Source of the DNA: Mobula hypostoma
Taxonomy: Eukaryota
Length of the DNA stretch: 64,000 bases
Reading direction: 5' to 3'
Assembly: GCF_963921235.1 (NCBI RefSeq)
Contig: NC_086108.1
Coordinates: 71,426,001 to 71,490,000, forward strand
Shown here: positions 14,576 to 53,170 of the stretch, piece after piece
Numbering within the stretch: position 1 is the first letter of the stretch
How the letters are laid out: the number at the start of each line of letters is the position of its first letter
The notes under the pieces: model-generated
What the model was told of the DNA's origin: nothing
The model's database searches: none
Seen by the model: the letters and a program-made list of their open reading frames with translations, nothing else
Position numbers and translations under genes: made by a program

Positions 14576-15893
14576 TAGGCTAACACTGTTCATAAGTCAA
14601 CATCTCCCTCAATTTCAGGTTGGTGTAAATTTGTAGTTGGATATGTTTGATGTTCTTCTGCAAAGTAAAGAGTATTTTCCTTTGGTGGTCCGTTTCCCTT
14701 TGGCAGAGCTATACTCTTGCAATTATATGATTGCACTTCTGCCTTTCACATTCCTACAGCTATTCCAATTTAGGGTTGGTGACACGGACCTCTTCATTTC
14801 AGAGGGTGTTTGCCACTTGGTGGAGCTACTTCCTATACCAGTTGTGGCAGCATTTATTCCCAGATTTGAAAGGATATGCAGCAGAGATGTTTTAGCTGGG
14901 ATATTTTATATAGCTATAATATTATATTTTTATAGAACTACTTTTCTCAAGTCACTGTACAAGTGTTATCAAGCAAAACATTAGTTAGGTATGTGAAAGC
15001 AGATGGACAAAATCTTGGTCAAAGAACTAGGTTTTAAGGTGATGAGAGAGTGGTGGGAGATTTGGGGATGGAATTGTAAATGTTTATATATTGGCATTTG
15101 AAGATGGCTATGATAGTGATTGCATTTAGGAATGCTTAAGCATATGGTCTAGCATTGTAGATAGGAGGAGGTTGAAAAGTGAGAAGGAGAGAGTCAAGGC
15201 TATGGAGAAAATTGGAAATGTGGCTGAGAATTTTGAAATCAAGGAATGGCTTATGGAGAGTCTATGCAGGTCAGTGAGTGTAGAGGGAAATGGGTTGGCT
15301 GGACGTAAGACACAGGAACAGCGAGAAAATTGTCTCTGTAGTAGATGACAGAAAAGGTCATCTACTGTCAAGAATATGTTGAAAGCACCTGCAGTGCTCT
15401 TCTCCAGAGGGCTGGATATGCTGTTATGATGAAGAGCATTTATATAGTTTAGTTTTGTTTTAGTGGATGTTGGCAGATTAAACAACAAATAAGGCACCAC
15501 TGAAGGTCCACCTAAAGTAGCATAACATTGTTTTGGGGATGTAAAGACAACTACCAATGTCAGTGCCATGAAGAAGTGAATAATTTTGTGTAGAGCAAGC
15601 GTGGCAGCAAGTTATGTTATAAAGACAATCTTACCATCTTGGTATATAAGGTACCTATTTTAATGACTTTCCAATATCTCTCTCATTTGGGAAGAAATTG
15701 GTGATAACGGATGGTTTTATGGAGTAATGCTAACACTGGAAAAATGATAACTTAAGCCCCTTTGACATAATCGTCGATCAGCTATGTGATCTTGTTCGGG
15801 AATGCAAAGGTGTATAATGAGGGAGTGTTTATAATGCTGGAATTTTGGACTATTAATGTGGATGATGTGTTCAAAACAGTTTGAAAATTTGAA

Positions 15894-16085
15894 CAACACA
15901 CATCAAAGTTGCTGGTGAACGCAGCAGGCCAGGCAGCATCTATAGGAAGAGGCACAGTCGACGTTTCAGGTCTCGGCCTGAAACGTCGACTGCGCCTCTT
16001 CCTATAGATGCTGCCTGGCCTGCTGCGTTCACCAGCAACTTTGATGTGTGTTGCTTGAATTTCCAGCATCTGCAGAATTCCTGTT
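15894..16085. mobile_element. Fold-back Penelope-like insert forming a 160-bp near-perfect palindrome
   Basis: Perfect 15-bp TSD GTTTGAAAATTTGAA (15879-15893 / 16086-16100); arms of about 77 bp with one mismatch (15894..16053); same sequence family as 40560 and 44446. Confidence 0.85.
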
Positions 16086-16566
16086 GTTTGAAAATTTGAA
16101 ATTGGGTTTTTAAAAAGATCGAGCTTGTGAAAGCTGAGGTGTTTAAAATTATGCCAAATTTTCCAGAAAAAAATTGGTTCATGGATGTCCTCTCTAGGAA
16201 TCCAAGGAAAAGCTTACTTAATTAAAACTTCCTGCATTGTCCTATTTAAAAAAGAATTGTGTGGGTATGTTAAATAGCAGTTTGTAGATTCTGTATATTA
16301 TCTAGTCTTCTGTGCCAGTAATGATCTCCCCAAAGTAATTATTCCTACTGTCAGATCAATGACAGATTTGTGCTTTGAGTCCTAATTTAAAATATAGGTG
16401 AAAGTGTAATCCTGAATTAATACTGTTAACTGTTGAAGAGTATGAATACAATGATTTGTTATTAAAATGAAGGTGATCAGCAAAATCTTAAATGAGCTTT
16501 ATAAAATTTTATTTTGTAACATAGGCAGTTTTTAATATTTTAGTGACTCTCTTTTTTTACCATTAG

Positions 16567-17154
16567 GCATATCTAAGGGCAGTTGATATCAAGATCATGC
16601 ACCAACTGATGGCCATTAATGAAGGGATTGAGGTGGTGAAGTGGATTTTAGAAGAAAAGGGCACTCTTGCCAGTAGGTGCAGCAGTCTCACTAGCAGTAT
16701 GTACAGCCTCGTTGAGAGCCAGGAGACCTCGAGGAGAGGTAGCTGGAACAGCCTCCAGGATCCGAACGATAAATTGGATGGGATTTCTATTGGAAGCTTT
16801 TTGGATACTCTGGCTGATGATATGGATGAATACTGTCAGACCACTGTAGATCCTTTGTCCTCAATGCCTTCGGGTGGCCCCTTCACTACAATGGAGAAAG
16901 AAGTCTATCCCAATGAGATACACAGCCAACAGAACAATATTGCTAATGGCTTCATGGAAAAACAAGGAAACTTTGTAGCAGATTGCAATGTGGAAAATAA
17001 ATTCTCTCATGATAAACAAATCAAAGATGTTGGGAAACTGAAGGCACAGAAACATGGGAAAAGTGAATATGATAGCTGTAAAAATAAAATGCACATTGAA
17101 TATGATGCCCATTGGCACTGGGTGCAGTCACAAGATGACATAACATTTCTGTGA
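16567..17154 (+). CDS. LURAP1: Leucine-rich adaptor protein 1, coding exon 2 (195 aa + stop)
   Basis: Pyrimidine tract plus CATTAG|GCA acceptor, in frame with exon 1. AYLRAVDIKIMHQL...EEKGTL..CSSLTSS...RRGSW..ISIGSFLDT and the C-terminal HWHWVQSQDDITFL match LURAP1 (recalled HWFWEQCQDDVTFL) rather than LURAP1L. Confidence 0.95.
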   Translation, partial: AYLRAVDIKIMHQLMAINEGIEVVKWILEEKGTLASRCSSLTSSMYSLVESQETSRRGSWNSLQDPNDKLDGISIGSFLDTLADDMDEYCQTTVDPLSSMPSGGPFTTMEKEVYPNEIHSQQNNIANGFMEKQGNFVADCNVENKFSHDKQIKDVGKLKAQKHGKSEYDSCKNKMHIEYDAHWHWVQSQDDITFL

Positions 17155-39699: not shown

Positions 39700-40619
39700 A
39701 TTGTACCAATGGATTGTAATGCATAGTGACATATGACAATATTATAAAAGTAGACAATTATTATGCAGGATTTTTGCATTCATTGTGCTCGTGCTTCTAT
39801 TTTGAATTTGCCACTTCGATATCCAAATATGGCCACAAATGAATAGTTGAAACATGAAGAAAGATCTATACACCACACAGCTTTGGTTGTGATGTAGTCT
39901 TACAACATTGGAACTCTGAATTTTGACAGTAGCAACCACTGACAAGTTCATATTGGTCAGGATGTAGGGAGAAATGGACAAAATCAAAAAGGGAATGAAA
40001 GGGAATTTGTTCCCTCAAACTGTTTCAGGATTCATTAAGCACTTAAACCACTGTTTTGTGCCACTAACAGCTCAATGATTCTGTACTGCAGTGTCAAAGA
40101 AGCCTGTGATTATAGTCCTGGTACTTATCGGGAATGATGGTAGTGAGAAATTTGTTGGGACAAGAAACTAGAAATATGGTAAATGTAACAACAGCTACTG
40201 ATGAACCTTAATGAACCAAATTCATTCAGCCCTCACCTCCCATGGATATTGAATAATATATGCCAGCGAGCTCCTCGTTTTTTCTTGTGTGGGATGAGCA
40301 AATTGAAAATAGTTTCCACTGGTGGTTTGAACTGATATCAATAGTAAATTCTTCTGCAAATGGACAGGTAAATTAAAGTAAATCTGATCATAAGGATTAT
40401 GGAATAAGAGAGTATGGATACACAGGAGACTGCAGATTCTGGAATCTGGAGCAACGCACAATCTACTGTGGGTTAAACAGCATCTGTGCGAGGGAAAGGA
40501 GCGGTTGACGTTTTGGGCCAAAATCCTGCATCAGGACCAAAGGACCATAAAGTAATGGAACACACATAAAAGTTGCTGGTGAACGCAGCAGGCCAGGCAG
40601 GATCTCTAGGAAGAGGTAC

Positions 40620-40655
40620 AGTCGACGTTTCGGGCTGAGACCCTTCGTCAGGACT
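40620..40655 (-). ncRNA. Minimal type I hammerhead ribozyme motif
   Basis: Reverse complement AGUC-CUGACGA-A-GGG UCUCAG CCC-GAAAC-GUC-GACU. Confidence 0.65.
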
Positions 40656-41064
40656 AACTGAAAGAAGAGCTAGTAAGAGATTTGAAAGTGGGAGGGGGAG
40701 GGGGAGATCCGAAATGATAGGAGAAGACAGGATGGCACGAACATTGACTTCTCAAACTTCCGCTAATGCCCCACCTCCCCCTCGTACCCCATCCGTTATT
40801 TATTTATATACACACATTCTTTTTCTCTCTCTCCTTTTTCTCCCTCTGTCCCTCTCACTATACCTCTTGCCCATTGTCTGGGCTTTTATCCCCACCTCCC
40901 CCTTTTCTTTCTCCTTAGGCCTCCTGTCCCATGATCCTCTCATATCCCTTTTGCCAATCACCTGTCCAGTTCTTGGCTCCATCTCTCCCTCTCCTGTCTT
41001 CTCCTATCACTTTGGATGTCCCCCCCCCCCACTTTCAAATCTCTAACTATCTCTTCTTTCAGTT

Positions 41065-41100
41065 AGTCCTGACGAAGGGTCTCGGTCTGAAACGTCGACT
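41065..41100 (+). ncRNA. Minimal type I hammerhead ribozyme motif
   Basis: AGUC-CUGACGA-A-GGGU CUCG GUCU-GAAAC-GUC-GACU; stem II weakened to wobble pairs. Confidence 0.6.
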
Positions 41101-43087
41101 GTACCTCTTCCTAGAGATGCTGCCTGGCCTGCTGCATTCACCAGCAACTTTCATGTTTGTTGCTTGAAATTCCAGCATCTGCAGATTTCCTCATGAAGTA
41201 ATGGAGGCTGTGTGTGTCATAAAGTAAGAGGAAGAGATTATAGGAAAGTGGAAGATAGTTGTAACCATGGTGCAAGATAACGAGGTGGCAATGCTCATCT
41301 CCAGACAACATTATGGGTAGTCCAGGAAATGTTTCTGGAAGTGAATGATGATACCGAGAGGGGGCAGAGGGTGTGGTGTGCTCCCTTGCCTAACCAGCTC
41401 CACCTGTCACTGTTGTGGGGGAATTAATGCCAAGAATCCACCAATCCCGTTTGCAAGGTCTGGAGGTTAGAATAAATGTGGTTAAGTTTTTCCATTCGTG
41501 ACTTTGTGCCATGCTCTGTGACCAACAGGGCACAGGTGCAAATTGATTGTTTTATATGAGACCCAATATAATAAGAAATGTAGGTCAAACTTGCTGTGAA
41601 TTTGAAAGCAATGAAAGAGAAATGGCATTTTTCTGCTCTTACATTCGGCATTGTTGTATTCTGTAGACTAACCTGGGGTCACAGGTTGTAAGACTGCCCT
41701 GAAACTTCCTGCTAGTTTAACTGAATTATATCAGTTTACCTTCGGTGTTTGCACTTGAAGATTCACAGAAGCACAATGGGCCTTTGTCACTGCAACCAGT
41801 TACAAAATTATATTTACATACCAACTGAACAATGACCTCTTAAAGTAATGCTCACAGTTTTGGCATCACCATTATTGGGCTAAACCAATAGATTATAGAT
41901 AAGAGCTTAATGTTCTGCCTTGTTTTAGTAGGAAGTTTCCAAGCAAGCTGAGTTAAACAAACATGCCTGGAGTATTCTAATGACACTTGTTTGTTGAATG
42001 TGGCAGGTGCCGTAGTTGAAGTTCTCCTTGTTTTCCTTCAAGAATCTTTAAAAGAATAATCTCTGTTATGCAACGGCCTCAATATATCACCAATTGTTTA
42101 AATTTCCATTTTTCCCCTAGCTTATCAGTGTGAAGTAACACTCTGCTGGCATGACAATTTATCAACTTCCCACCTGTCAGGAATCAGCCAGAATCTCAGA
42201 TTATTCTGGACAGCTGTATAAGTAATCTGGATAAAAGCTGCACACATCTCCTCTTATATATCTCACATATATCTGAAATAATTTATACATTTAGCAGCTG
42301 CAAATGTTATACTGGATCACTTCTCTCGGAGACATTTCAATGATCTCAAAGGAATACATTCAGTGTGTGGGATTAGAGAATTTGGTGTGGCGGGGAGGAG
42401 TGGAAGCAACCGTCCTTTTGTCTTAGTCAGTACAATCTTACCTCAATAAATAAATGGTTCACTGAGGCACGTGCTTATTATACGGCACATTAATTAGAAT
42501 CAGCTAGATTCAAAGTATATTTGCCACACAGATAGTATAATACAAGGAATCAGATAACATCAGAGCAAAAGTTTTAGCAGCTTTGTGGACAGCACACTAT
42601 CTCCATTTGACCTGGTTCAGCTGGGCAGGCATGAGCAGGGTAATAAAAGCTTCCTGCTACCTTTGCTTAGAACTGTTTCTCGGTGTCAGCTCTGCTCTGA
42701 AACAGAAATTGGGGTCTGAAATTAGGCTTGGAATGGGAGCAACTGCCTCACTGACATCGGTGGGGAGTGGGAGCAAATGAGTGGGAATAGCACGAGTGAT
42801 ACAGTAAAGGGAAGGGATGGAAAGGGACTAGTGGCCACAATTATTTCATAAAGAGCAGAGAGTCCAGAGAGGAAAGCAGAAAGAGAAGAAAGAAGGAAGA
42901 GAACAGCACTTCCATGGCATCCTCTTGATTTTATGATTTCAAGGCACCAAAGCCACCCCACAGAAATATTTTGACAAAGGAAACCACAATACAATGTAGA
43001 CAAAAGTGGTGTTAAAGGGAGGAGAAGCAACTCTACAAATAAGATGCCACAAGAAATGAATTATTAGAGTCAGGTAAGTTATATCTA

Positions 43088-43116: not shown

Positions 43117-44541
43117 CAAGGGTAATGTTACTCAGAAGGCATTTTGAATGCTGCAGCATTCTCTGAAACATAACTAAGATTGAAATCAAATGATGTGGGA
43201 TAGATCTTCATTTTTAGTTGCTAGCACTAAACAAGCTGCTGATGAGTTGTTTTCTAAAATGTTCGGTTGAATCTAACAGATGTCAAACATTGCAGAAGTC
43301 GTTTAATGCTGGCCCCAAAGATAAAATCCGCTCCTAACTGTCTGTCACTGAAGTAAAGTGTGTAGGTTAAGGATTTCTATTGAACAATCATCAGATCAAA
43401 CAAACAACATTTTGAATTGGTAGGTCAGTTGCTTATAAATTTGGATACCATCTATCTTTAACATTAGAGTCCATTTCAGGGTCTTCGTCGTGATTCTAAT
43501 ATCAGCTGAGCCTATAATGTGAGCCGTCAGAAAATTTGGTGTGGAAGATCTAGTCATTTGGACCTACTTGTGGCTAATTACAGTGTCATATTAATAAAAC
43601 CTCAGAGAATGTTTTAATAATCCGTGGAAGCTGTGGAAACTTGGCCCGTTTGTCAGTCCCAGCAGATGGTGACAACTATAAGGAGTGCATTTGGAAATCA
43701 CGGTCAATAGCTTTCACCCACAATGTTCACTCATTGGAACATTACAGGCTTTAAACCCACAGCTTCTCGCAGAGCAGTTCTTATCCTGGTAGAAACACTG
43801 GGATTACAGAATCACTCCTGAAGAACCAACATTATAACTGGCCCTTAATCCAACCCTTTGAAATCTATAATGGGGTAAGCTTTACAGAAAGTGTACAAGG
43901 CACTAATGAGACCACATCTAAAAGACAGTGAACAAGTTGATCCCCATATTCAAGGAAAAATGATATTTTATTGGAGATGGTTTACTTTACTTTATACTTT
44001 ATACTTTATTGTCGCCAAACAATTGGCACTAGAATGTACACTCATCACAGCAATATTTGATTCTGCACTTCACACTCCCTGGATTACAAATGTTAAATAT
44101 TAAAAATATTTAAAATAGTTAAAATTAGTAAATATTAAAAAATTAACTTATAAATCATAAATAGAAAACAGGAAAATGGGAAGTAAAGTAGTGCAAAAAA
44201 GCCGAGAGACAGGTCCAGATGTTTTGGAGGATACGGTCCAGATCCAGGACAGGATCCGTTCAGCAGTCTTATCACAGTTGGAAAGAAGCTGCTCCCAAAT
44301 CTGGCCGTACGAGTCTTCAAGCTCCTGAACCTTCTCCCGGAGGGAAGAGGGACGAAAAGTGTGTTGACTGGGTGGGTCGTGTCCTTGATTATCCTGGCAG
44401 CACTGCTCCAACAGCGTGCGGTGTAAAGTGAGTCCAAGGACGGAAACAACAGGAATTATTCAGATGCTGGAAATTCAAGTAACACACATCAAAGTTGCTG
44501 GTGAATGCAGCAGGCCAGGCAGCATCTATTGGAAGAGGTAC

Positions 44542-44577
44542 AGTCGACGTTTCGGGCCGAGACCCTTCGTCAGGACT
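44542..44577 (-). ncRNA. Minimal type I hammerhead ribozyme motif (best-preserved copy)
   Basis: Reverse complement AGUC-CUGACGA-A-GGGU CUCG GCCC-GAAAC-GUC-GACU: stem I AGUC/GACU, core CUGANGA and GAAA, loopless palindromic stem III ACGU, GUC cleavage triplet. Confidence 0.7.
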
Positions 44578-44665
44578 AACTGAAGGAAGAGTTAGTAAGA
44601 CATTTGAAAGTGGGAGGGGGAGGCCACTCCCACTTTCAAATCTCTTACTAACTCTTCCTTCAGTT

Positions 44666-44701
44666 AGTCCTGACGAAGGGTCTCAGCCTGAAATGTCGAC
44701 T
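44666..44701 (+). ncRNA. Degenerate minimal hammerhead motif
   Basis: AGUC-CUGACGA-AGGGUCUCAGCCU-GAAAU-GUC-GACU. Confidence 0.5.
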
Positions 44702-46619
44702 GTACCTCTTCCTAGAGATGCTGCCTGGCCTGCCGCGTCCACGGACAGAAGATTGGTTTGTGTGATGTGCTGCACCATGTTCATGATCTTCTGCAGCTTC
44801 TTTCAGTCTTGGACAGGACAACTTCCATATCAGGTTGTGATGCACCCTAGAAGAATGCTTTCTACGGTGCATCTATAAAAATTAGTGAGGGTTTTAGGGG
44901 ACAGGCCAAATTTCTTTAGTTTTCTCAGGAAGTAAAGGCGCTGGTGGGCCTTCTTGGCAGTGAGCTCTGCTTGGTTGGACCAAGTCAGGTCATTTGTGAT
45001 ATTGACCCCGAGGAACTTAAAGCTTTTGACCTGTTCCACTTGCGCACCACTGATGTAAATTGGGTCGTGCGGTCCGCTACTCCTTCTGAAGTCAACAACC
45101 AATTCCTTCGTCTTGCTGACGTTGAGGGATAGGTTATTGTCTTTGCACCATGCCACCAGGTTCTTAATTTCCTCTCTGTACTCAAACTCATCATTACCCG
45201 AGATACGGCCTACAATTGTTGTGTCGTCAGCAAACTTAAATATTGAGTTTGATGGAAACTTTGCTACACAATCATGGGTGTACAGTGAGTACAGCAGGGG
45301 GTTGAGTACACAGCCTTGTGGGGCATCGGTGCTCAGAGTGATTGTAGAGGAGAGCTTGTCCCCTATTTTTACAGCCTGGGTCCTGTCTGTGAGGAAGTTG
45401 AAGATTCAGCTGCAGATCTGAGTGCTAAGGCCCAGGTTCCAGAGCTTAAGAATCAGTTTATTTGGAATGATGGTATTAAAGGCAGAGCTGTAGTCAATGA
45501 AAAGGAGCCTTATGTATGTGTCTTTATTCTCCAGGTGTTCTAAGGAGGAACGTAGGGCCAGAGAGATGGCATCTGCCGTTGACCTGTTGCTTCGGTAGGC
45601 AAATTGCAAAGCATCGAGGTTGACCGGTAGGTTGTGGTTGATGTGTGCCATAACCAATCTCTCAAAGCACTTCATAGCAATTGATGTCAGAGCCACAAGT
45701 TGATAGTCATTCAGGCATGCCTTGCTCTTCGGCACTGGGATTATCATTGCCTTCTTAAAGAGGGGATCTTAGATTGAAGCAAGGAGCAGCTGAAGATGTC
45801 AGCTAACACTCCAGCTAGCTCGCTTGCACAGGCTCGGAGAACCCATCCCAGGACGCCATCTGGGCCTGTCGCCTTCCTTGGATTTATCTTCAGGAAGGCC
45901 CTTTTAATGTCCTCCTTGGTGACGATGAATCTCGATGCCACCAGGTCCGGTTCATCCGGAGGGAGCGGGACGCTCCTCTTCTGTTCGAATTTTGCATATT
46001 ATATGTTAAGTTCGTCAGGAAGAGAAGTGCCACAGTTATTGATATTCCCAGCCTTTTCTTTGCGTCCAGTGATCTCATTTAGACCCTGCCATAGTCTACT
46101 AGCATCCCTCTGGTTAGCCTGGGCTTCCAACTTGGCTCGATATTTCCTCTTGGCGCCCTTCCGGAGTGCACGCCTGGATTCCGTATAGCGACTGGTATCC
46201 CTGGACCTCCCTCTTCAGATTCTGTTTGTAAGCCGGGAGGAGGAGTACGGCCTGATGGTCCGATTTTCCTAAGTGAGGTTAATTACTCATGGTCTAGCAT
46301 GGTTGAGGAAAATAGAAAACAGATAAAGTTTAGAAGTTTGAAAGCAGGAGCTGAGGAAATGTGTGTTATGCCAGATCATTTCATAATGAAAGAGTGGAAT
46401 GAAATGAAGGATTAATGATTGGAAATTAATTGCGAGTTTAAGAAAAGGAGAGGACTGAGTTTCAGAAGGCTGAAGAAAGATTTGGATTTGGGGGAGCTTG
46501 GATCATCCTACCCATTGTAAAATGTTGATCTTGCTGACTAAAATGCAGTGATGAGTGATAAGAGGTCAACCTATATGAATCCATTTGTAACATAATGAGC
46601 ACTGATGACTAATGGAACT

Positions 46620-47060: not shown

Positions 47061-47618
47061 TGCTTGATGGGCTGTGCTGTTACCTGCACAACACCACCAA
47101 GAAATTTGTCCCCAGTTGGTGGAACTAAGCATACTGAACAGTGACAGCAGTGCTCTGGTTTCAAACTTCATTCTAATGAAATCAATGGGGTGAATCTCAG
47201 AGGTAGAGTATAATGCGTTGTACATTCAGTGTGATTTACTGAGGATGACTGTCTATACAAGTGTGTCTTCGTTGAGCTCAGCCCTCAGCATGGACGTTTC
47301 AGTTTAACATGTCAAAAAACATCACCAAGGAAATGCATTTGTAAATACAACCACTCAAGATATACTAAGACTGATTACTTATGTATATTTGGAGCGGAGC
47401 TGCAATCTTCAAGCTCAATATTCCTTGTCCGGGCTGAGAACAGGCCCTGATTCCTATACTGTCCTGAGGGTCAGGATGAAAGCATGGTCTGATTGGTTGA
47501 AGAGTCACAGCCTGAAACGTTGACTGTTTATTTCTGTCCACTGATGCTGCCTAATCTTCTGAGTTCCTCCACCGTTTTGTGTGTGTTGATCTAGATTTCC
47601 ATATCTGCAGAATCTCTT

Positions 47619-48045
47619 TGTCATGGCCCCGACTGTTAATTCCCCATTTTCTCCTAATTCCCTTTGATGGCAGCACACCTGGTTCTCATCAAGACCAGCA
47701 GCATAAAAACCCCGGCTTTGCATCCACTCATTGCCAGATTGTTGTTTAGCCAGTGTGGTAATTAATGTTCCCAGCCACTTAGGATTGTGTATTCTAAGTT
47801 TTACTTCAGTACTGAGGTTTACCTGTGTAACTCTGTCTCTCCGTGTCAAGAAAAGTATTGTCTACCGCTTGCCTTTCTACGCACTGTGTCAAGATAAGGG
47901 TTGCCTGCCGCCTGCCTTTCCTCTTGCCGTTCAACTCCAGCAACGCTTCGTGTCAGGTTCCAGCTACGCCCACGTCCTCATCTGCATCCTAACTGTGTCT
48001 CCATGCCAGTGTCCTGCATATGGGTTTGCCCCATTCCTTGCAACA
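47619..48045 (+). repeat. 5' LTR
   Basis: TG...CA; ungapped match to 52687..53113 with about 42 mismatches by hand count, mostly transitions. Confidence 0.95.
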
Positions 48046-51000
48046 GAATGATCTGGCCACCATGGACCCAGTGGACACGAATACCCTTCAGCAAGCCCTC
48101 GCCAGCCAAGGTTCCCTACTGGGACAGCATGACCAACTCCTCCGGGAGGTCATGGAGAGCCTCCGTTCCCTGTCTGCTCACGTCACGCAGATCGGTAACC
48201 AGATGGACAAGGTCTACACTCATTTTACTCAACCCACTCCTGGAACCCTGTCTAACCAGCCCAGACAGCCTGTAGCAGCAACCCCCCACGTGTCACCAAC
48301 ACCCCCGACCAGAGAGCCTCACGTCCCTGAGCCGGAGCACTACGCTGGAGATTTAGGGAAGTGCCAGGGTTTCCTCCTTCAGTGCTCCCTGGTGTTTGAA
48401 AAGCAGTCATCAACTTACTCCACAGATAAGTCAAAGATTGCTTATATCATGGGGTTGTTGCGGGGAAGTGCATTAGCATGGGCCACAGCAGTCTGGGACA
48501 ACCAACTGGATATCTGATCTTTTTTCGCCACTTTTATCGCGGAAATGAGAAAAATCTTTGACCACCCCACCTGTGGTAAAGAAGCCGCCAAGCATCTACT
48601 CACTCTCCGCCAGGGCTCCCGCAGTGTTGCCCAATATTCCGTGGAGTTCCGGACATTGGCAGCCGACTCGGGGTGGAACAATGGGTCACTCCAGGGGGTT
48701 TTTCTGAATGGACCCAGCGACATGGTGAAAGATGAGTTGGCGGCAAGAGACGACACCGACAGCCTTATCTCCTGATCTCCTTAGCCACCATGTTGAACAA
48801 TTGCCTCCGAGGATGTCATAGAGAAAGAACTGGTCATCCATCACCTTTGGCTACTTCTCGGCACTCATTTATGCCTCCCACCAGAACAAGCCTCTCTCCT
48901 CCTTCTGCAGCCCGGGTAGCTCCCAGCCCTGCTGTTTCCACTGCCTCGGGAGAGGAACCCACGCAACTGGGACGGAACTGCCTTTCTCCCACAGAACGAC
49001 CCCAGAGAATGAGAGCGGCTGAGTGCCTATATTGCGGTCAGTCCGGCCACTTCCTTGCCACCTGCCCCCTTCGGCCAAGAAGGGAGGACTTACCAGTAGA
49101 AAGGGGACCCCTGGTGAAGGGATCCTGGTCCCTTCCGTACCCCGACCCCGGATGCAGCTTCACTCTGTGTCACAACGACCAGTCCCTGCCTCTGTTAGCA
49201 CTACTGGACTTGGGCACTGAGGGAAACTTTTTGGATGAAAACTTAGCCTTCCAAGCCGGGATTCCACGTGAGCCATTGTGCGCCCCCCCCGCCCCCGGAC
49301 ACCTGGGCACTGGACGGTAGACTACTGGCCCGAGTCACACACTGTATGGAACCTCTTCCACTCCTGCTCTCTGGAAACCATCGGGAACAGGTACGATTCA
49401 ATTTAATTTCCTCTCTTCAAGCCCCTGTAGTTCTTGGTTATCCCTGGTTAAGCCGCCATAACCCCCACATCGACTGGCCCACTGGGAAGATAGTCAGCAG
49501 GAGTTCGTTCTGCCATTCCACTTGTCTACGATCAGCCCTTTCCCCAGTGGAGGTCACTGCGACCTCGTCCGCCTCTGAGCCTCCTGACTTATCCAAGGTT
49601 CCAGTAGAGTATCACGATCTGGGAGAAGTGTTTAGCAAGCAACGGGCTCTTTCCCTGCCTCCACATCGCCTTACGATTGCACAACTGACCTTCTCCTCGG
49701 AGACCCTCTACCCACCAGCCGGCTGTACAACCTGTCCCGGCCAGAAAGAGAAGCTATGGAGATGTATGTGAATGACTCCCTCGTGGCTGGCATTATCCGA
49801 GCCTCATCTTCCCCTGTAGGCGCAGGTTTCTTCTTTGTGGGGAAGAAAGACAGCTCACTGCGACCCCGCATTGACTATCGTGGCCTGAACAGCATCACCA
49901 TAAAGAATAAGTATCCCCTGCCCCTTATCAACTCTGCTTTTGAGCCCCTTCACAGAGCCACAATTTTCTCTAAGTTGGATCTACAGAATGCCTATCACCT
50001 GGTCAGGATAAGGGAGGGAGATGAATGGAAAACAGCTTTTAACACCCCCCCCCCCAGTCATTTCGAATATCCGGTCATGCCATTCAGTCTCACCAATGCC
50101 CCCACCATCTTCCAAGCCCTGGTAAGCAACGTCCTTAGGAACTTTATTAACCGTTTTGTTTTCGTTTATTTGGACGACATCCTAATCTTCACCCGTAATC
50201 TTCAGGAACACACCCACCACGTCTGTTAGGTTCTTCAGAGGCTTTTGGAGAACAAGCTGTTCTTTAAGGCAGAGAAGTGTGAGTTCCATGCCCGTTCTGT
50301 CAGTTTCCTGGGGTACATTGAGAGCAGGGAGGTGAGGGCAGATCCGGAAAAGATCCGGGCTGTGGCGGAGTGGCCCAAACCCATGACGCTCAAACAACTC
50401 CAGTGATTTCTGGGGTTCGCAAACTTCTACCGTCGCTTCATCAGGGATTACAGCCGGGTGTCAGCGCCCCTTACTCAGCTCACCTCTCCTGCGACTCCTT
50501 TTCACTGGATCCCCGAAGTGGACTCAGCCTTCTCGGAGCTGAAGAGGCGTTTCACCTCCACTCCCATCCTGGTCCAGCCAGACCCCTCTCGCCAATTCAT
50601 TGTGGAAGTCGACGCCTCCGACTCTGGGGTGGGAGAGGTCCTCTCCCAACGCTCTGGCCCAGACCAAAAGCTCCATCCCTGTGCCTTTTTCTCTCGCCGT
50701 CTATCCCCCGCTGAACGGAACTACGATGTTGAGTACTGCGAGATGCTGGCCGTCAAACTTGCCTTGGAGGAGTGGAGGCACTGGCTGGAGGGAGCGGAAC
50801 ATCCATTCACCGTCTAGACGGATCATAAGAACCTGGCATACATCCAAACAGCTAAACGCCTTAACTCCCGCCAAGCCCGTTGGGCACTATTTTTTGGCTG
50901 TTTCAAATTCACCCTCACCTATCATCCTGGTTCCAAGAACGGGAAGCCAGATACTCTCTCTTGTCAATACATCTCCGAGGAGGACTCTTCCAACCCTGAT

Positions 51001-52111
51001 ACCATCCTTCCACCATCCTGTGTTGTGGCTGCCCTCACCTGGGAGATCGAATCCATAGTCAAGGAGGCCCAGTGGACTCAACCTGACCCAGGCAATGGAC
51101 CCTCCAATCGCCTCTTTGTGCCTGACTCTGTCCAGTCTCAGGTTCTCCAGTGGGGGCATACTTTCCGTTTCCCCTGCCATCCCGGAATCGATTGAACTCT
51201 GTCCCTTCTGAAGCGACACTTCTGGTGGCCCACCATGGACGCTGACACTTGCTCCTTCGTCTCTGCCTGTTCTGTGTGTGCCCGTGGATAAGTCTCCCAC
51301 CGGCCACCTCTTGGGTTGCTTTGTCCCCTACCTGTCCCTGGCCGCCCTTGGTCCCACATTGCTCTGGATTTCGTCACTGGACTGCCCCCTTCACATGGTA
51401 GCACAGCTATACTCACCGTGGTGGACCGTATCTCCAAAGCCGTGCACTTCGTAGCCCTTCCCAAACTCCCTACAGCCCGTGAGACAGCTGACCTCCTTGA
51501 TCAACACATCTTCCACCTTCATGGAATTCCCTCTGACATTGTTTCTGACCAGGGCCCCCAATTTATCTCTTAAGTCTGGAAACCCTTCTGTCAAGCCCTC
51601 AGGGCTTCAGTAAGTCTGTCTTCCAGTTTCCATCCACGGACTAACGGGCAAATGGAGCGAGCAAATCAGCATTTGGAAGCAGCACTGTGCTGCATATCTG
51701 CCAACAACCTGTCATCCTGGAGCACCCATCTCACTTGGGTGGAGTACGCCCACAACTCCCTGGTCAGCACCGCCACAGGCAGGTCTTCCTTCGAATTATC
51801 AACCCCTTCTGTTTCCTGCCCATGAAGACAACATCACTGTGCCTTCAGTTCAGGCCCATCTCCGCCGGTGCCGCAAGATCTTGAAGGATGCGCGCGCGGC
51901 CCTGCTCCGCTCAGCCGACCGCAACCGGAGGATTGCCGATTGCCACTGAGTTCCAGTGCCCAACTATCAGCCTGGTCAGAAGGTTTGGCTCTCTTCAAGA
52001 CACATCCCTCTCAAGAATGAATCCAAGAAACTCGCCCCTCGTTACATCGGACCATTCGAAATCGTGAGCCTCATCAACCCCTTGGTGGTCAAACTCAAAC
52101 TGCCCAGATCT

Positions 52112-52366
52112 CCTTATTCAGGTGGATATTCTCTAACTGTTGCTGAAGAGCAGCAGGCTTCACATTATAATAGGCAGCCTGTTCCAAGATAAAACATACA
52201 GTTTCCAACACCAAGCGAAGCTCATGCTTTTCCAGACAAAGTGCTGCTTGAAGCTTTTCCTTTTCTTCTTCATTAAGTGAATGTTCACCCTTACGAGACA
52301 GTAGTCGTGGAGATTTGCCAGTATCAAGTTCATTTATCAACACCACAGCTTCCTTTATGCTCTGCG
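52112..52366 (-). pseudogene. COMMD10: Intronless COMMD10 coding fragment inserted antisense inside the Gypsy pol
   Basis: [85 protein letters not shown] matches recalled COMMD10 ([88 protein letters not shown]). Removing it restores Gypsy [21 protein letters not shown]. Confidence 0.92.
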
Positions 52367-52686
52367 TCTATGCACATTCATCCCACGTTCCACGTCTCTC
52401 AACTGAAACCTGTGTCTTTCAGCCCTTTGTGCCCTCCCGCTGAACCTCCTCCACCCACCCGGGTCATTGACGACTACCCAGCCTACACCGTCCGGTGAAT
52501 ACTGGATGTGTGCCGCTGAGGTAGGGGTCTCCAGTACCTGGTCGATTGGGAGCGATACAGTCCTGAGGAGCACACCTGGATTCCCCGCTCCTTCAGCTTG
52601 GACCCTTCCCTCATCCGAGATTTCCATTGAAACAATCTGGACAAGCCTGGTGGTTTGCCTGGAGACTCCCGTTGAGGGGAGACTAG

Positions 52687-53113
52687 TGTCACGGTCCCAA
52701 CTGTTAATTCCTCATTTTCTCCTAATTCCCTTTGATGGCGGCACACTTGATTCTCATCAAGACCAGCAGCATAAAAATCCCGGCTTTGCATCCACTCGTT
52801 GCCAGATCGTTGTTTAGCCAGTGTGGTAACTAACGTTCCCGGCCACTTAGGATTGTGTATTCTAAGTTTTACCTCAGTACTGAGGTTTACCTGTGTAACT
52901 CTGTCTCTCCATGTCAAGATAAGTACTGTCTACCGTTTGCCTTTCTACGCTCCATGTCAAGATAAGGGTTGCCTGCCGCCTGCCTTTCTGTTTGCCGTTC
53001 AACTCCAGCAACGTTTCGTGTCAGGTTCCAGCTATGCTCACGCCTTCGTCTGCATCCTAACCCAATCTCCGTGTCAGTGTCCTGCGTTTGGGTTTGCTCC
53101 GTTCCCTGCAATA
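52687..53113 (+). repeat. 3' LTR
   Basis: Copy of the 5' LTR; terminal CA mutated to TA; preceded by the PPT. Confidence 0.95.
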
Positions 53114-53170
53114 CTCCTGTGTCTCTGGTTGGTTGCTATGGTTTACTAGTGGTCCAGCACCTCTGAGATA

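Follow-up and report, generated by a model that had tools for sequence, protein, structure and literature searches.

The window analysed here, a 64,000-nucleotide stretch of the Mobula hypostoma genome (contig NC_086108.1, positions 71,426,001 to 71,490,000), contains between its positions 47619 and 53113 a retroelement whose reading frames carry numerous stops and frameshifts. The features recognised in and around this element were as follows.

47614..47618, plus strand: left target-site duplication, CTCTT
47619..48045, plus strand: 5' LTR, 427 bases, TG...CA
49636..50226, plus strand: reverse transcriptase remnant (RVT_1, E 2e-24)
50407..50814, plus strand: RNase H remnant (RT_RNaseH_2, E 3e-32)
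51292..51570, plus strand: integrase core remnant (rve, E 4e-9)
51974..52111, plus strand: left part of the integrase SH3_Tf2-1 domain (E 1e-12, profile positions 1-46 of 64)
52370..52414, plus strand: right part of the SH3_Tf2-1 domain (E 0.004, profile positions 51-63, below the cut-off when taken alone)
52526..52627, plus strand: chromodomain remnant (PF00385, E 2e-7)
52687..53113, plus strand: 3' LTR, 427 bases, TG...TA, with 42 differences from the 5' LTR and no gaps
53114..53118, plus strand: right target-site duplication, CTCCT, 4/5 identical to the left one

The two LTRs with their target duplication, the order of reverse transcriptase, RNase H and integrase, and the chromodomain identify the element as a Ty3/Gypsy chromovirus. 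Many of its sister copies (loci L006-L034) have longer LTRs with a tandem unit of about 70 bases that matches window positions 47789-47859.

The integrase SH3 domain is interrupted by a cDNA fragment of the host gene COMMD10, which lies on the minus strand and is thus antisense to the element, whose pol is encoded on the plus strand. The fragment occupies 52109-52369 (261 bases including both AGA/TCT ends) and represents a net gain of 258 bases over the empty site. It is composed of the following parts.

52109..52111, plus strand: left TCT, the target codon and parent sequence too; 3-base microhomology on the mRNA 3' side
52109..52178, minus strand: first 70 of the 156 bases of COMMD10 exon 4, 0 differences; loose ends of the X5 and X12 contigs run into exon 4
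52179..52289, minus strand: COMMD10 exon 3 in full (111 bases), differing from today's parent at 6 positions
52290..52359, minus strand: COMMD10 exon 2, 70 of 91 bases, with a 21-base gap at 52291/52292 (one-base ambiguity)
52360..52369, minus strand: last 10 bases of COMMD10 exon 1, 9/10 identical; the loose end of the X12 contig runs into exon 1
52367..52369, plus strand: right TCT, the same three target bases and parent sequence too; 3-base microhomology on the mRNA 5' side

Alignment to the parent gene, which is intact on contig C59 with exons 1-4 located (the window itself lies on C50 of this 3.5 Gb genome), showed exons 1-4 joined with 9 of 261 bases different and 21 bases missing. Three GT-AG introns of 8712, 3036 and 6161 bases are absent and all three splice junctions are exact. 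The minus-strand frame is open over 52095-52367, giving 90 codons from stop to stop, 86 of them COMMD10; its translation matches the COMM_HN profile (E 1e-10) and solved COMMD10 chains (E 9e-29). Because it unites four exons across three junctions without introns, the insert is a processed fragment of spliced COMMD10 mRNA, and this origin is proven. A preliminary description, made from the letters of the window, had placed 255 bases of AT-richer, mRNA-derived sequence between TCT at 52109-52111 and TCT at 52367-52369, with an unbroken minus-strand frame of the COMMD10 N-terminal domain and no poly(A). The coordinates and the frame proved right, and the three exon-exon junctions bear out the mRNA derivation. 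The GC content is 42% within the insert and 56% and 57% in its flanks, and a search of the insert for poly(A), AATAAA and ATTAAA gave none. A literature search combining COMMD10 and retrocopy yielded no report.

The same description had remarked on seven missing residues, ILQKLHL, and these are absent from the insert and present in 13 of 13 aligned homologues of cartilaginous fishes. The corresponding 21-base gap was considered as a product of alternative splicing and this was rejected, since the missing stretch is not bounded by GT-AG in either register and contigs of both relatives (X5 and X12) contain it. The gap falls for the most part within a predicted hairpin across the exon 2/3 junction (71 bases, -11.9 kcal/mol before any comparison with shuffled sequence); our guess is that the copying enzyme may have skipped this hairpin, and a later DNA deletion would fit too. 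Four of the differences cluster within 12 bases beside the gap (p 0.02). That they arose in one fold-back event was discarded, given that the X12 contig has the insert's letters at 52284 and 52287. Since these letters are common to X12 and the insert, the two differences look ancestral, the change having apparently occurred in the parent line. The insert's letter at 52224 is likewise common to the X5 and X12 contigs; the nucleotide states of relatives are taken from these two contigs only.

The target site could be reconstructed base by base from other members of the Gypsy family. It is contiguous, with a single codon where the window reads TCT-insert-TCT, in 28 of the 29 family copies examined, and the 29th has an 11-base deletion. 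The target codon is TCC in 15 of these copies, TCT in 10 and another triplet in 4. Consequently no element sequence was lost at the insertion site, in agreement with what had been read from the window. Of the other interruptions found in the 29 loci, the 4 examined are nested LTR, LINE and other repeats, with no host mRNA among them. COMMD10 has AGA at both insert ends, and the next base mismatches the element each time, so that the doubled three bases are fully explained by donor sequence. The proposal that COMMD10 supplied the AGA thus holds at both ends, with a correction of one letter: the end of exon 1 reads GAG ACC and not GAG ACG. Among 400,000 random placements, a match of at least 3 bases common to both donor ends and the target occurred in 0.11%. 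As AGA is parental at both ends and a chance match is this rare, microhomology was very likely used at both ends of the insert.

These junctions set the insert apart from the usual products of L1. A canonical L1-type processed pseudogene has poly(A), the mRNA 3' end and a duplication of at least 5 bases, whereas the COMMD10 fragment ends in exon 4, is tailless and doubles 3 bases. It is closer to the tailless retropseudogenes ascribed to L1 internal priming (Noll et al. 2015, PMC5322556; Kojima 2010, PMC2912911), with which it shares 3' truncation, lack of a tail and complementarity between RNA and target. According to the sections of those papers available to us, however, such loci were selected with duplications of 8-35 bases and a TT/WAAAA-like site, and the COMMD10 target has 3 bases and only the T/A step.

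Read contigs were used to ask how firmly the intron-free form is anchored in the genome. A 1192-base contig of run X12 (a related organism; the run was assigned to RNA by guess) spans the whole insert with 21 extra bases. Contigs of two DNA runs, from one sample that is possibly the assembly's own, contain both the exon 2/3 junction, deletion included, and the exon 3/4 junction, without a single difference; therefore the intron-free form exists as DNA. The junctions between Gypsy and insert were bridged by no contig among the matches listed, and one contig of run X3, 438 bases long, follows the window over 52247-52361 but departs from it beyond that point, as would be expected if the piece were real but wrongly placed by the assembler. 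However, the 31-base run 52331-52361 is common to genomic exon 2 with its acceptor, the X3 contig departs exactly where this run ends and the X4 contig stops there, and we read the departure as a branch in a short-word assembly graph. Taken with the exactness of the DNA-run contigs and with junctions that fall to the base on an SH3 codon, this makes an assembly artefact very improbable. A 799-base X12 contig from related organism E aligns to window positions 51960-52488, represents the same Gypsy family at about 90% likeness and is without the insert.

The insert is a single copy, i.e. a chimera without amplification. A DNA search of the assembly returned four candidates, which were the window and three parent exons (4/4), and a protein search returned the window and five parent exons. 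A search for the Gypsy family with 881 bases gave 833 candidates, of which 40 were scored, and the insert was in none of the 39 other scored copies. The preliminary description had reasoned that shared inserts would mean capture followed by amplification and a unique insert a post-integration event; on that reasoning the uniqueness points to the latter.

The ages of insert and element were then compared. Over 255 sites the insert shows about 6 private changes and no more than 8, i.e. 2.4%, or 3.1% if 52284 and 52287 are counted. The element carries 91 non-CpG changes in 2254 sites (3.8% per LTR, 4.2% in pol). For the LTR pair, K2P is 0.108, half of which is 0.054, with 29 non-CpG differences in 385 sites; against the column majority of 29 copies, pol shows 55 non-CpG changes in 1220 sites and 7 in 264. 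The point estimate puts the age of the insert at about 0.6 of that of the element, and with so few insert sites the difference in divergence gives p of 0.23-0.61 and a likelihood ratio of 0.65-1.56 for same age against later arrival. The insert is too short for dating to separate a patch made after integration from a detour made before it. Five of the approximately 6 private changes alter amino acids conserved in other species (sharks and skates); the insert has decayed since its arrival and gives no sign of selection. If the X12 letters are ancestral, the copying would predate the split of the organism B line from that of this genome. No function is indicated: the insert is decaying, spans only a portion of the N-terminal domain and points against the LTR promoter.

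Since the mechanism has to be judged against what else happens to mRNAs in this ray, we surveyed retrocopies in seven family searches (RPS3A, GAPDH, RPLP, RPSA, EF1A, HSP90 and chaperonins). No retrocopies of RPS3A or GAPDH were found in the assembly (0 each); RPLP and RPSA gave one each (the RPLP parent was not located, and RPSA had no 85% match at a parent locus). Among 30 chaperonin loci out of 55 matches none was a retrocopy at 85%. Two loci, L156 (C1:168228608-168230092) and L157 (C12:106360503-106362011), contain intron-free chaperonin-family frames of 589 and 584 codons with no stops; at 85%, neither matches the DNA of the other loci retrieved, and both are possibly old retrogenes. EF1A has 6 retrocopies (L057-L062), 5 of them reaching the mRNA 3' end and 4 with tails of at least 8 A; target duplications of 10-16 bases were seen in 4 of 6 and inversions in 2. 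This pattern points to an L1-like machinery that would mobilise mRNAs in trans. The HSP90 family has three intron-free pieces, all of them 3'-truncated and tailless (3/3 in a stricter first look). None of the 11 surveyed retrocopies matched the proteins or DNA of this Gypsy, a test that is blind to pol-less elements of other families, as is known from the SUDS3 Gypsy family, which it missed too.

One of the HSP90 pieces is a close analogue of the COMMD10 insert. It comprises about 285 bases from three exons (L131:4997-5281, on C5 at about 171199997-171200281) and lies antisense in the 3' UTR of an L1-like LINE, with 6-base microhomologies at both ends and no loss of target. None of 19 LINE copies examined has the piece, nor does any of 39 scored, and it is as diverged as its host LINE (8/275 vs 13/397, ratio 2.2 for the same age). 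It thus repeats the COMMD10 signature (antisense, tailless, double microhomology, no loss, single copy) in a non-LTR host. A second piece (L132:4582-5443, on C12), tailless and of at least 5 exons, abuts in antisense orientation the 5' end of a truncated LINE, which could be due to twin priming on a cellular mRNA or to a later LINE insertion. The third (L133:3795-5723, on C63) is an HSP90B1-like retrocopy with an intact 5' end, cut at the 3' side inside an exon and without tail, and a 14-base word repeats just downstream of it.

Gypsy elements in this genome also capture mRNA at scale, as shown by 119 Sds3 matches among 150 scored of 331 candidates. Within the SUDS3-carrying family, 9 of 30 loci bear an antisense piece of RNF213. 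Only one of the nine carriers keeps both junctions, namely L120:337-1282 (on C58 near 64646400-64647300), where 946 bases are flanked by a 12-base duplication with two mismatches; the eight others are shorter, and those checked miss about 400 bases on one side.

Classic LTR-mediated capture, by two switches onto a co-packaged sense mRNA during minus-strand synthesis, would account for a piece that lies inside an element with two LTRs, is truncated at both ends, lacks a tail and has microhomology at both junctions. Sense mRNA copied in minus-strand synthesis ends up in sense orientation to the element RNA, which the COMMD10 insert is not, and antisense RNA cannot carry sense-strand GT-AG junctions; the doubt about orientation that had been voiced at the outset is therefore well founded on the known mechanism. 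Moreover, RNase H removes the RNA template behind the reverse transcriptase, so the return point tends to lie ahead and element sequence is replaced. In the available text of Tan et al. 2016 (PMC5131818), 15 of 15 LTR captures in flies took the place of element sequence, with no case of an insert interrupting a continuous element, and the absence of replacement is used there as a mark of insertion into a pre-existing element. Those retrocopies resemble the COMMD10 insert in being partial, spliced and tailless with both LTRs flanking and microsimilarity at both junctions; as far as they are described in that text, they differ in a median microsimilarity of 6 bp and in replacement, where the COMMD10 insert has 3 + 3 bases, replaces nothing, is antisense and was not amplified. 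Template-switch capture by the Gypsy element, which the preliminary description had considered, thus gives way as the leading reading before the lack of any loss and the recurrence of the signature in a LINE, and we consider it highly improbable in this classic form.

We favour instead, as the probable origin of the insert, the repair of nicked or broken DNA within an already integrated Gypsy copy by an RNA-templated patch. This weight is given because the insert is unique, tailless fragments occur outside LTR elements and the same signature was found in a LINE; the weights placed on competing readings are judgements and were not calculated. In the model, a staggered break would have left TCT as a top-strand 3' end, and this end would have paired with AGA in exon 4 of COMMD10, on the mRNA itself or on a cDNA already made from it. 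From there a trans-acting reverse transcriptase, for which a LINE ORF2 protein is the most plausible candidate, would have extended it by 258 bases as far as exon 1 and probably jumped the 21-base hairpin on the way. The new TCT end would finally have paired with the bottom-strand AGA overhang, and repair would have filled the remainder. Since the break would be primed and closed by the same bases, the three bases are target duplication and double microhomology at once. It also follows from the model that orientation is a coin toss and that the Gypsy copy is a mere bystander which records the empty site.

The insert has the features by which RMDR or class 2 TSI events are recognised: it is truncated at both ends and tailless, has microhomology and an intact donor, and left the target with little or no change. 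The closest precedent is that of Ono et al. 2015 (PMC4516963), who, in the part of the article available to us, describe a repaired break that had taken up a spliced piece of Pcnt, reversed in orientation and with 3-bp microhomology, and propose a double-microhomology model. Both cases involve a partial spliced mRNA, truncated at both ends, tailless, with short microhomology and in reverse orientation. In the material seen from that article the breaks were induced in mouse zygotes and a retroviral enzyme was suggested, whereas the COMMD10 event is natural, old and germline and its break is a deduction; in addition, the same three bases serve both ends in COMMD10, a difference from the case as given there. 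Class 2 templated insertions, as outlined in the accessible portions of Onozawa and Aplan 2016 (PMC5110952), likewise have a distant and intact donor, no poly(A) or polyadenylation signal, and microhomology. The gain of 258 bases falls in the range of 73-414 given in those portions for induced insertions. Class 2 events are defined there without target duplication and often show a micro-deletion, while COMMD10 has 3 bases twice and none lost.

Some results count against the patch. The divergence data do not show the insert to be younger than its element (p 0.23-0.61), the HSP90 analogue is antisense and as old as its LINE, as a detour by the host element's enzyme would predict, and 3 bases fall far short of the 10-16-base duplications of EF1A and below the 8-35 bases that define tailless retropseudogenes. 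Furthermore, as Gypsy mRNA capture is frequent here, the prior for an element-linked capture is not small. We therefore also considered that the element's own reverse transcriptase made the chimera before integration: the plus-strand end (TCT) would have left the minus-strand DNA for an AGA in COMMD10 mRNA packaged with the element, been extended there by 258 bases and come back to the same AGA. A switch onto COMMD10 cDNA during minus-strand synthesis would give the same product. As the DNA template is not destroyed behind the enzyme, a loss-free return and the antisense orientation would follow, and orientation, zero loss and double microhomology would be explained in one step. All three inserts with no loss or a duplicated target (COMMD10, RNF213 and HSP90) are antisense, although two were chosen because they had been flagged as antisense and only HSP90 was found blind. 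On the other hand, the chimera was not amplified, the same signature appears in a non-LTR host, the point estimate makes the insert younger than its element, and no loss-free case is mentioned among the LTR captures in the text available from PMC5131818. A literature search found no description of such a plus-strand detour. We keep this detour as possible though unlikely because ages overlap in both dated cases, the blind analogue is antisense and Gypsy capture is frequent. More tentative still is the general form of this idea, in which retroelement reverse transcriptases make a "second-strand detour" onto cellular mRNA and leave short, antisense, loss-free patches as old as the element copy, so that COMMD10, HSP90 and perhaps RNF213 would be three fossils of one route; we regard this as doubtful.

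Another route would copy DNA from an older intron-free COMMD10 pseudogene, since lost, through polymerase template switching in repair. Double microhomology and the internal deletion would fit such DNA-templated repair too, but the assembly has no second intron-free copy and an extra unseen event would be needed, which leaves this route quite improbable.

Most likely, then, the insert belongs to a known kind of RNA-templated insertion, of which it is a clean case, and no new system is involved. As a patch made after integration it would be an ordinary fossil, one more sign that reverse-transcribed mRNA sometimes fills breaks in the germline of a vertebrate outside the mammals. The modest value of the case lies in the hundreds of sister copies, which give the empty site base by base, and in the warning that a retrocopy within an LTR element does not by itself prove LTR-mediated capture. 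Should such patches turn out to be biased towards antisense and to match their host copies in age, they would uncover a route of capture during plus-strand synthesis; and if the second-strand detour is true, the route would differ from capture by sense-strand replacement and would supply antisense RNA directed at host genes. Antisense pieces also arise in chimeras of antisense RNA and LINE-1 that have been ascribed to twin priming (Law and Burns 2026, PMC13174262), which, like COMMD10 in the patch model, become antisense via priming from a second DNA end. As characterised in the available part of that paper, those chimeras form at the junction of a new LINE insertion, whereas COMMD10 sits well inside an LTR element. 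Transcription of this Gypsy copy, if it occurred, would give RNA about 97% complementary to COMMD10 mRNA, a situation comparable to Pxyfem of the diamondback moth (PMC9674220), where the accessible text likewise describes spliced host cDNA among LTR remnants, antisense to its parent. Pxyfem is, by the same text, multicopy and yields silencing RNAs, in contrast to COMMD10, which is single copy and known here from sequence alone.

Outside the element, a scan of 28 long window frames detected no host exon besides one of a LURAP-family gene at 16567-17151 on the plus strand (E 6e-46), about 30 kb before the Gypsy element. Furthermore, a repeat of about 120 bases forms head-to-head inverted pairs at 15882-16089, 40546-41191 and 44444-44792; such pairs, which may be Penelope-like ends, recur in the window and at other loci.
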